The notes under the pieces were generated by a model. The model saw only the letters and a list, made by a program, of their open reading frames with translations. It did no database searches and was not told the DNA's origin. Below, piece by piece: positions 43,622 to 44,323 of a stretch of 51,662 nt of DNA (the first letter of the stretch is position 1; each line of letters begins with the position of its first letter). This stretch comes from Escherichia phage aaroes, in sequence record NC_049826.1; one strand, given 5' to 3'. Made by a program: the position numbers and the translations under genes.

Positions 43622-44323
43622 TTAGCAGCCGCAACAGCCAGTAGGCGGAGTCTGCGGAGTAGGCAACTTGAAGTTTACCAATTGCTCTACTTGGTTGATT
43701 TTGCAATTCAGTGCGGCGGTCTGGTTTGCCTGAGATAGAGCAAATCGCGCCTCCTGCAACTGAGCTTTCATATCGCAAATCAAAACAGCCTGAGAATCAG
43801 CAAACTGTTGGCGCATCAGATCTCGCGTTGCATTGCCTTGTCGCTCAATATTCAGGTTTGTCTCACAGCAACATCTCTCCGATGCAATCTGTGCCTGATA
43901 GGAACGCTCAAGAGCATTAACATCAGCAGCATTAATCGCAGCAACCGTCTGGTTAGTACCGCTAACAATCGCGGTATTCAGTCCGGCGAAACCTTGCACC
44001 GATGCAAGCAGGTTTTGCGTATTCTGGCTGGTAATGCCGTTAAAGGTTGATGCGGCGGAGCGCTCAACGGTAAGGTTTGTGGAGTTTTGGCCTTGCAGAG
44101 TTTGCAGACCCAGGTTGTTTACGCCTGTCTGGATGTTATTAATACCATCAAGAACAGCGTTAGCACCGACAGCAACAGCAGCACCATCACCACCATAACC
44201 ACCACGACCATTAAATCCGTTACCAAACCATGACCCAATCAGGCCACCAACAGCACCACCAAGTCCAGCCGCGCCAGCTTCGCCACCAAAACCACCAGTA
44301 GGGAGTAAAGTCATATCTGACAT
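43622..44323 (-). CDS. glycine-zipper / Cys-cluster protein of unknown function (233 aa)
   Basis: AAGAGGAA RBS before ATG 44323; Gly-rich GxxxG N-terminal 60 aa, Gln/Asn/Ala coiled-coil-like middle, CCC and C-terminal CCGC. Confidence 0.5.
   Translation of the reverse strand: MSDMTLLPTGGFGGEAGAAGLGGAVGGLIGSWFGNGFNGRGGYGGDGAAVAVGANAVLDGINNIQTGVNNLGLQTLQGQNSTNLTVERSAASTFNGITSQNTQNLLASVQGFAGLNTAIVSGTNQTVAAINAADVNALERSYQAQIASERCCCETNLNIERQGNATRDLMRQQFADSQAVLICDMKAQLQEARFALSQANQTAALNCKINQVEQLVNFKLPTPQTPPTGCCGC

Follow-up and report, generated by a model that had tools for sequence, protein, structure and literature searches.

A glycine-zipper and helical-rod protein of Escherichia phage aaroes heads a mobile four-gene cassette with a candidate function at the host membrane

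Spanins, such as lambda Rz/Rz1 and the T1 u-spanin gp11, are known phage membrane fusogens, and moron-encoded membrane proteins, HK97 gp15 and P22 SieA among them, act in superinfection exclusion. Here we describe a protein of Escherichia phage aaroes that shares features with both. The protein, called g1 here (100% identical to aaroes gp76), is encoded in sequence record NC_049826.1, whose whole stretch of 51,662 nucleotides is referred to as the window; the source phage is a T1-like virulent siphovirus (Drexlerviridae, Tempevirinae, Hanrivervirus). Like the spanins, g1 has a putative N-terminal membrane segment, a long Cys-bearing helix and a Pro-rich C-terminal stretch, and it likewise lies near lysis genes in three distant loci. 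Like the exclusion proteins HK97 gp15, P22 SieA and T4 Imm, it is accessory, insulated, apparently membrane-anchored and near tail genes. It has the same order of parts as the class I fusion protein influenza HA2 (a Gly/aromatic-rich inserting peptide, then a long polar helix), and it has the pattern GxxxGxxxGxxxG (G22-G34) in common with SlyB and Rick_17kDa_Anti. An initial annotation took g1 for a stand-alone gene; comparison across phages indicates instead that it heads a conserved, mobile and dispensable four-gene accessory cassette (g1-g4, Table 1). The explanation that we favour, while stopping a little short of calling it probable, is that g1 is a membrane-acting, non-structural accessory protein.

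The g1 reading frame is a genuine gene on which purifying selection is strong: the ratios of non-synonymous to synonymous substitution (Ka/Ks) are 0.04-0.10 against four relatives. It lies in a region whose DNA is 91-97% identical to that of other Hanriverviruses. The protein fits PHROG 9288, which has no annotated function, over its full length (residues 1-232 against profile positions 1-234 of 234, E = 4.1e-123). An alternative upstream ATG at 44371 would lengthen the frame, but homologues from many lineages share the N-terminus MSDMTLLP, and the ATG at 44323 was therefore taken as the start. The gene has a ribosome-binding site of its own, as first described: the Shine-Dalgarno sequence AGAGGAA at 44331-44337, 7 nt 5' of the start. 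As a catalogued hypothetical protein, g1 is not new in its existence. A literature search found no paper describing g1 or the linkage of PHROGs 9288, 9157, 8329 and 7239 as a cassette, and a search on glycine-zipper phage proteins found nothing relevant. What appears to be new here is that the four genes form a unit, that this unit is mobile and dispensable, and that its first protein combines a Gly-zipper, a rod and a CCC motif.

The cassette runs on the minus strand from 44323 to 42502, and all four proteins gave full-length, highly significant matches to their PHROGs, none of which has a function. The same gene order was found in JenK1 gp25-28 (Queuovirinae), Sasha gp07-10 (9NA-like), Yersinia phage X1 genes 27-24 and PY100 ORF29-32, and it recurs in eiAU ORF13-10 (PMC3025963). 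Iterated hidden Markov model (HMM) searches of the open reading frames (ORFs) of about 90 loci recovered g1-g4 together in eight, g1+g2+g3 in six, g1+g2 in nine and g1+g3 in four. Loci in which the g3 or the g4 model gave no match have ORFs of like size in the same positions (150-180 aa, then 77-89 aa), and a gene-size pattern of approximately 220-300, 80-160, 150-180 and 77-89 aa recurs in distant uncultured loci. Cassette-bearing groups comprise Drexlerviridae and Queuovirinae (both represented in the BASEL collection), 9NA-like/Sashavirus, PY100-like, eiAU-like and uncultured phages. These distributions indicate that the cassette passes as one block from phage group to unrelated phage group, and that phages can lose it.

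Absence, decay and fusion of g1 were all seen. T1 is without all four cassette genes, and its fibre gene abuts a bidirectional terminator shared with ssb; the Sfin-1 gene table has no cassette at the syntenic site, where the arrangement is as in T1, and no g1 homologue or cassette was found in Sf11 (Cedarrivervirus). In the T5-like Salmonella phage vaffelhjerte (Epseptimavirus; L005 3749-4339) the g1 homologue is truncated and split over two frames beside an intact fibre gene, and many other Epseptimavirus records hold only g1 fragments, including unannotated ones of about 50 residues, with g2-g4 absent. An in-frame g1::g3 fusion of Queuovirinae type (P0121) was present in 11 contigs of up to 61 kb; its joint is a shared 'IER' microhomology (g1 to ...CCCETNLNIER, g3 from PVNVMYVGF...), and the deletion removes the g1 C-terminus, the entire g2 and the g3 N-terminus. 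In PY100 the cassette forms a plus-strand island among minus-strand early genes. Similarity between Hanriverviruses breaks at the hairpin 3' of the fibre gene, and many relatives align only to window position ~44485.

These observations bear on the proposal that g1 serves as an ordinary subunit of the tail fibre, or as a chaperone of the adjacent one. The gene does lie next to a tail fibre gene, as originally stated, and it directly follows tail-fibre or fibre-assembly genes in Hanrivervirus, Queuovirinae, eiAU, locus L087 and T5-like phages. In its helical, N/Q/S/T/G-rich composition the protein is reminiscent of segmented fibrous proteins, and BASEL records label it 'putative sugar-binding protein', a label for which the BASEL paper offers no basis. 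The post-fibre position, however, coincides with the end of the late operon, where accessory genes are often found. The adjacent fibre owns an S74 chaperone, and separate chaperone genes precede g1 in L087 and JenK1. T1 and Sfin-1 both have S74-type fibres and no g1, and g1 is invariant across unrelated fibre alleles, being 99% identical in KarlJaspers despite an unrelated fibre and a separate chaperone there. No match was obtained to any tail-fibre family or to the chaperone families Tfa, gp38, DUF4376 and S74; the sole tail match was a tape-measure PHROG (E = 0.0095), and a tape-measure origin was rejected, as hhalign of the g1 family against the phage's own tape measure gave a probability of 0.3%. 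Given the absence from T1, the pseudogene, the fusion, the constancy across fibres and the PY100 island, we conclude that g1 is not a fibre subunit or fibre chaperone; that explanation is very improbable and largely refuted. The initial annotation was thus right that g1 is neither a typical fibre nor a chaperone, and the same evidence speaks against its suggestion of an unusual fibre component. As a separate observation, the T5-like remnants lie immediately 3' of a gene for a lateral tail fibre of S74 type that resembles the fibre of the window, which suggests an old co-transfer with the fibre gene followed by loss.

Table 1. Coordinates in the window of the cassette genes, elements of g1 and adjoining features.
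Feature	Coordinates	Strand	Remarks
g1 (aaroes gp76)	43622-44323	minus	233 aa; PHROG 9288 match, E 4e-123
Gly-zipper / marginally hydrophobic membrane segment AGAAGLGGAVGGLIGSWFGNGF	44213-44278, codons 16-37	minus	Hessa scan; alignment with transmembrane helices
Predicted continuous alpha-helical rod, Q/N/S/T/A-rich, with QGFAGLN motif	43676-44155, codons 57-216	minus	AlphaFold2
CCC motif	43865-43873, codons 151-153	minus	conserved almost throughout family
C-terminal CCGC after Pro/Thr-rich tail	43625-43636, codons 230-233	minus	variable in family
g2	43252-43575	minus	107 aa; phrog_9157
g3	42746-43237	minus	163 aa; PHROG 8329
g4	42502-42759	minus	85 aa; phrog_7239, E 4e-43; overlaps g3 end by 14 nt
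Leader of g1 with Shine-Dalgarno sequence and palindrome	44324-44464	minus	141 nt; sequence scan
Intrinsic terminator after fibre gene, upstream cassette boundary	44465-44486	minus	9-bp stem, U7 tail, folding free energy (dG) -16.4 kcal/mol, z -3.6
Hairpin terminator between g1 and g2	43596-43615	minus	dG -14.9, z -4.0
Bidirectional terminator closing cassette against convergent ssb	42493-42513	both	dG -13.6, z -4.1
Lateral tail fibre with C-terminal S74 intramolecular chaperone	44492-46570	minus	692 aa, Peptidase_S74; context, outside cassette

The g1 product is a three-part protein, made up of a short conserved acidic N-terminal motif with the Gly-zipper, a predicted helical rod of ~160 residues and a Pro/Thr tail. 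Residues 1-56 contain 36% Gly and 16% Ala, short of the 'almost pure' Gly/Ala composition first ascribed to them. The GxxxG spacing described with it is present, glycines G22, G26, G30 and G34 being exactly four residues apart, with G26 invariant and G30 nearly invariant in the family. Residues 57-216 contain 12% Gln and 12% Asn, and AlphaFold2, run on a 25-sequence alignment, predicted one continuous helix over them with predicted local distance difference test (pLDDT) values of 50-83. The hydrophobic periodicity of the rod peaks at approximately 3.67 (11/3) and not at the heptad value of 3.5. A canonical coiled coil is therefore unproven, and we use the term 'helical rod'; of the Gln/Asn-rich, coiled-coil-like region that had been proposed, the composition and the helix hold and the canonical coiled coil is not supported. 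Both reported Cys clusters exist, the CCC conserved and the CCGC not. Across 42 diverse members C153 never varies, and at least 90% retain C151 and C152; many close homologues finish ...TPPTPPTL/A/V with no Cys. Two further cysteines, C183 and C207, are present in g1.

Within the rod, residues ~120-150 (window 43950-44010) occur as two distinct alleles among otherwise near-identical homologues, SGTNQTVAAINAADVNALERSYQ and QSTNT..AIC.QSF.QQRTAFE. This pattern suggests mosaic recombination inside the rod.

The composition of the N-terminus also raised the possibility of a bacteriocin- or microcin-like secreted toxin. Class II microcins resemble the Gly-zipper composition of g1, and a GG pair stands at residues 10-11. 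Against this, g1 is 233 aa long, residues 1-11 are without the hydrophobic spacing of a double-glycine leader, its surroundings contain neither a C39 exporter nor an immunity gene, no bacteriocin family was matched, and the conserved partners are g2-g4 and not export genes. We regard a secreted toxin as the least probable of the explanations considered, and the 'bacteriocin-like' description was dropped.

Distant relatives of g1 were sought in two ways. An exhaustive HMMER search gave 111 clusters at 50% identity, and a word-indexed search of a 5.8-billion-protein set with a broad profile gave 917 clusters at 90% identity, none of them with a Pfam domain or an informative name. Three candidates from the exhaustive search (P0142, P0199 and P0209) were rejected as multi-repeat artefacts or unrelated repeat proteins. 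Five features are common to distant full-length members: M-x-D-M-x-L-x-P, a Gly-rich segment, QGF(A/S)GLN units (one to four per relative, 21-22 residues apart), CCC, followed in the family by (E/D)G-x-ATR-x-L(I/M), and LCD(A/S)K. Prophage copies were found in gut Alphaproteobacteria metagenome-assembled genomes, Coprococcus comes, Odoribacter, Clostridiales and Lentisphaeria. As these prophage hosts are both diderm and monoderm, the common target would be the cytoplasmic rather than the outer membrane.

The evidence that g1 associates with a membrane comes from these relatives. Its Gly-zipper, which contains the (G/A/S)xxxGxxxG motif of a membrane-associating segment, aligns with true transmembrane (TM) helices in P0170, P0203, P0206, P0216 and a gut-phage group (L025-L086, the L033 group), and from this homology we infer membrane association of g1; the membrane-active look of the N-terminus, remarked on from the start, thus finds its counterpart in distant members. 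The aligned helices of hydrophobic type, for example WWIWIILIAFLF, have Hessa sums of -0.3 to +2.8, and the Gly/Ala/Ser zippers of enterobacterial type +3.5 to +7, which is too weak for a called Sec-inserted TM helix. The best 19-mer of the g1 zipper, at +5.2, consists to 68% of G/A/S/T. No match to the Pfam Gly-zipper and Rick_17kDa_Anti models was obtained at E <= 0.1, and the family profile matched the SlyB zipper weakly (E = 0.034); g1 differs from such Gly-zipper families by its 160-residue helical rod and by having no lipoprotein signal.

The residues that flank the zipper give some indication of topology. In g1 the N-terminal side is acidic and has no Lys or Arg, and one Arg follows the segment. 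Among the 42 members, most N-flanks are likewise without Lys/Arg, nearly all are net acidic, and in most members a single Arg follows the segment. These charges are unlike those of a Sec signal-anchor and weakly favour an N-out/C-in topology or post-translational insertion. The two kinds of N-terminus also differ in their neighbours: hydrophobic-TM versions never occur with g2-g4, and Gly-zipper versions always occur with g2 and/or a g3-like gene, a dichotomy that would fit partners which handle a weak zipper.

The L033 group is of interest in its own right. Its g1 homologue (for example L033 6676-7104) combines a true TM helix with two CCC motifs, and lies in the head module, with the gene for minor capsid protein 2 on one side and those for the scaffold and the major capsid protein on the other. 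It is followed by a conserved trio of ~142, 196 and 140 aa that differs from g2-g4 and has no family matches.

In g2 a variable His/Asp/Arg-rich N-terminus is followed by a small conserved helical domain with ExExxE...ExxD/H. The protein had no Pfam match; it weakly matched PDB entry 2p06 (AF_0060; E = 0.006), a score partly inflated by that entry's His-tag, and one GenBank record calls the neighbouring gene a 'putative pyrophosphatase'. AF_0060 we take to belong to the all-alpha nucleoside triphosphate (NTP) pyrophosphatase (MazG-like) superfamily, and g2 possibly has such a fold. In g3 a confidently predicted alpha/beta domain precedes a disordered acidic/Pro tail, and the predicted structure had no significant structural neighbour. 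No match for g4 was found beyond its own PHROG. Pfam and NCBIfam gave nothing for g1, g3 or g4, and PADLOC models gave no match for g1-g4 at E <= 1.

Beside the cassette in Sasha lies the divergent gene gp06 (L004 2103-3653, 516 aa), which encodes an HNH/homing endonuclease (phrog_559, E = 9e-124). This endonuclease is a possible vehicle for cassette mobility.

The terminators on both sides of g1, which the initial annotation had singled out, are both real and not special. Terminator-like sites in the structural region (20-40 kb) numbered 33 against 18 +/- 3.9 expected in shuffled controls, several of them bidirectional, and T1 is annotated with the same dense pattern. Because intergenic terminators are common in this genome and in T1, their presence on both sides of g1 represents normal T1-like architecture, and a large number of such sites must be passed by late transcription in these phages, or must serve to tune it. 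A terminator at the g1-g2 junction is also annotated in G29-2 and Sasha. By analogy with the T1 terminators placed after the genes of the major capsid and major tail proteins, the g1-g2 hairpin probably attenuates transcription and leaves g1 in excess over g2-g4.

Taken over its full length, the g1 leader shows no unusual degree of structure (z -0.6). It contains a palindrome, GCAACATTTATGTTAC at 44365-44380, with core AACATAAATGTT and the form GTAAC-N6-GTTAC, 30-55 nt upstream of the g1 start. The same form stands upstream of g1 in KarlJaspers, JenK1 (GTAACGTAAGAGTTAC) and Sasha (GTAACCGATTGGTTAC) (loci L001, L003 and L004), and in Sasha AACATAAATGTT is also present further upstream. The palindrome seems to travel with the cassette and could be an operator or a hairpin of the 5' untranslated region. 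It was rejected as the mark of a regulon, GTAAC-N6-GTTAC occurring only once in the window. In two other loci, L089 (~5940-6000) and L090 (~1075-1130), the g1 homologue has its GGAGG ribosome-binding site inside the 3' arm of a strong hairpin, which a T run follows; this could be a terminator or an element that sequesters the ribosome-binding site, and suggests translational or attenuation control of g1.

In the explanation that we favour, g1 would be made late and in excess, as an abundant rod protein in the infected cell, and would associate with the host cytoplasmic membrane through its Gly-zipper. On account of the acidic N-flank without Lys/Arg and the one conserved Arg after the segment, the short N-tail would probably lie outside and the Cys-rich rod in the cytoplasm, where it may oligomerise. 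The g2-g4 proteins would then act in the cytoplasm as partners that the weakly hydrophobic Gly-zipper form of g1 specifically requires. The preferred role is an auxiliary late envelope function, which may be lysis timing, membrane disruption or else the blocking of other phages' entry.

A lysis-linked role takes up a part of the confidence that we place in this explanation, and by itself it is no more than a tentative proposal. It draws on gene context: the cassette is directly upstream of same-strand lysis genes in L087 (lysozyme and Rz), L089 (holin) and L090 (holin and Rz), and the Sasha cassette adjoins a protein with three transmembrane domains. Compared with spanins, g1 differs in having no Phage_lysis/Rz family match, no lipoprotein partner and an acidic rather than a basic N-flank; the phage already encodes a spanin at 2537-2935, and g1 homologues also occur in monoderm hosts, where spanins are not needed. 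As the phage owns a holin, an endolysin and a spanin, any lysis role of g1 would be auxiliary.

Several points weigh against a membrane-acting, lysis-linked g1. The cassette adjoins lysis genes in only ~4 of 10 lineages, at a site that is usual for unrelated accessory genes, and a complete holin-endolysin-spanin cassette is already present at 1831-2935. The g1 zipper is marginally hydrophobic, its Hessa sum being one at which Sec insertion is not predicted, and the topology depends on one conserved Arg and the acidic N-tail. The neighbour dichotomy is confounded by phylogeny, since the two types are two clades. No sigma-70 consensus promoter was found in 44324-44464, and the model does not explain a MazG-like g2 in the operon.

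We also considered a more specific form of membrane activity, in which the cassette is a membrane-active system built around a fusion-protein-like g1 rod, with a Gly-rich inserting peptide, a helical stalk of variable length and a Cys3 staple. A g3 chaperone would hold g1 soluble until triggered insertion into the cytoplasmic membrane, and g3 has a faint resemblance to Eag/SciW. Such a g1 might serve as a spanin-independent envelope breach or a virion-delivered entry helper, common to phages of Gram-negative and Gram-positive bacteria. The broad family profile weakly matched HA2 residues 4-80, a stretch that takes in the fusion peptide and where the long helix begins, with E values of 0.007-0.05. 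In a shuffle control, none of 500 global shuffles reached the real score, but 10-21 of 500 (2-4%) did when shuffled within 12-residue windows, so that the likeness seems mostly one of architecture and composition and is no evidence of common ancestry. No similarity of the g1 family to HIV gp41 was found, a PDB sequence search with the close-homologue profile gave only Psb31 (E = 0.036), and g1 is without the C-terminal TM anchor and receptor-binding subunit of class I fusion proteins. We hold this fusion-like system to be a long shot.

A different explanation would place g1 in the particle, as a non-essential virion-associated fibrous or ejection protein whose Gly-rich N-terminus enters the host membrane at infection and aids DNA entry; g3 would act as a chaperone keeping g1 soluble in the producer cell before it is mounted on or in the virion. 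The positions directly after fibre or fibre-assembly genes that were set out above would suit such a protein, as would the head-module position in the L033 gut-phage group, the differing rod lengths among relatives and the lack of a Sec-type positive n-region, as expected for post-translational insertion. The HA2 matches could be counted here too, subject to the same shuffle result. However, T1 does without g1 and other phages have it as a pseudogene or with a deletion, PY100 carries it in early-gene surroundings, and the strongly hydrophobic-TM relatives must insert in the producer's own membrane. The P400, eiAU and 9NA papers gave no proteome evidence for g1, and no virion proteome listing it was found in the literature search, the PY100 and 9NA-like proteome papers being outside its reach. 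On balance we consider a virion protein unlikely, though it is the foremost competitor of the membrane-acting accessory protein.

A role in superinfection exclusion, in which an inner-membrane-anchored rod would block genome entry of later phages, seems to us less likely again. It would account for the moron-like traits of g1 (accessory, mobile, terminator-insulated and beside tail genes), for its membrane-type N-terminus and for the mosaic central alleles, as expected of an interaction surface under diversifying pressure. Yet overall Ka/Ks is low, no match of g1 to PADLOC or any exclusion family was found, and the late-operon position in most lineages is unlike that of early-acting exclusion. 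HK97 gp15, P22 SieA and T4 Imm are each the product of a lone gene and match g1 in neither sequence nor structure; g1 is much larger, has a rod domain and belongs to four co-inherited genes. To our knowledge, the known exclusion proteins are encoded by single small genes and not by four-gene cassettes with an enzyme-like member.

The comparisons also turned up 19 unannotated GenBank records (MG0656xx) titled 'Campylobacter phage' (A123, A118, A16a and others; ~50 kb) that are 91-95% identical to this Hanrivervirus region. Their host assignment is doubtful, and they may be contaminating coliphages.

With g2 against 2p06 as the sole lead, no protein of g1-g4 significantly matches a curated family, a defence model or a solved structure. 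The cassette view corrects the readings of g1 as a 'putative sugar-binding protein' and as part of the fibre locus, and treating g1-g4 as one unit makes one testable system out of four 'hypothetical proteins', in well-studied and tractable phages. If the unit controls lysis, exclusion or entry by way of a fusion-peptide-like rod, this would be a new membrane-active mechanism in phage biology; otherwise g1-g4 would be an ordinary accessory cassette.

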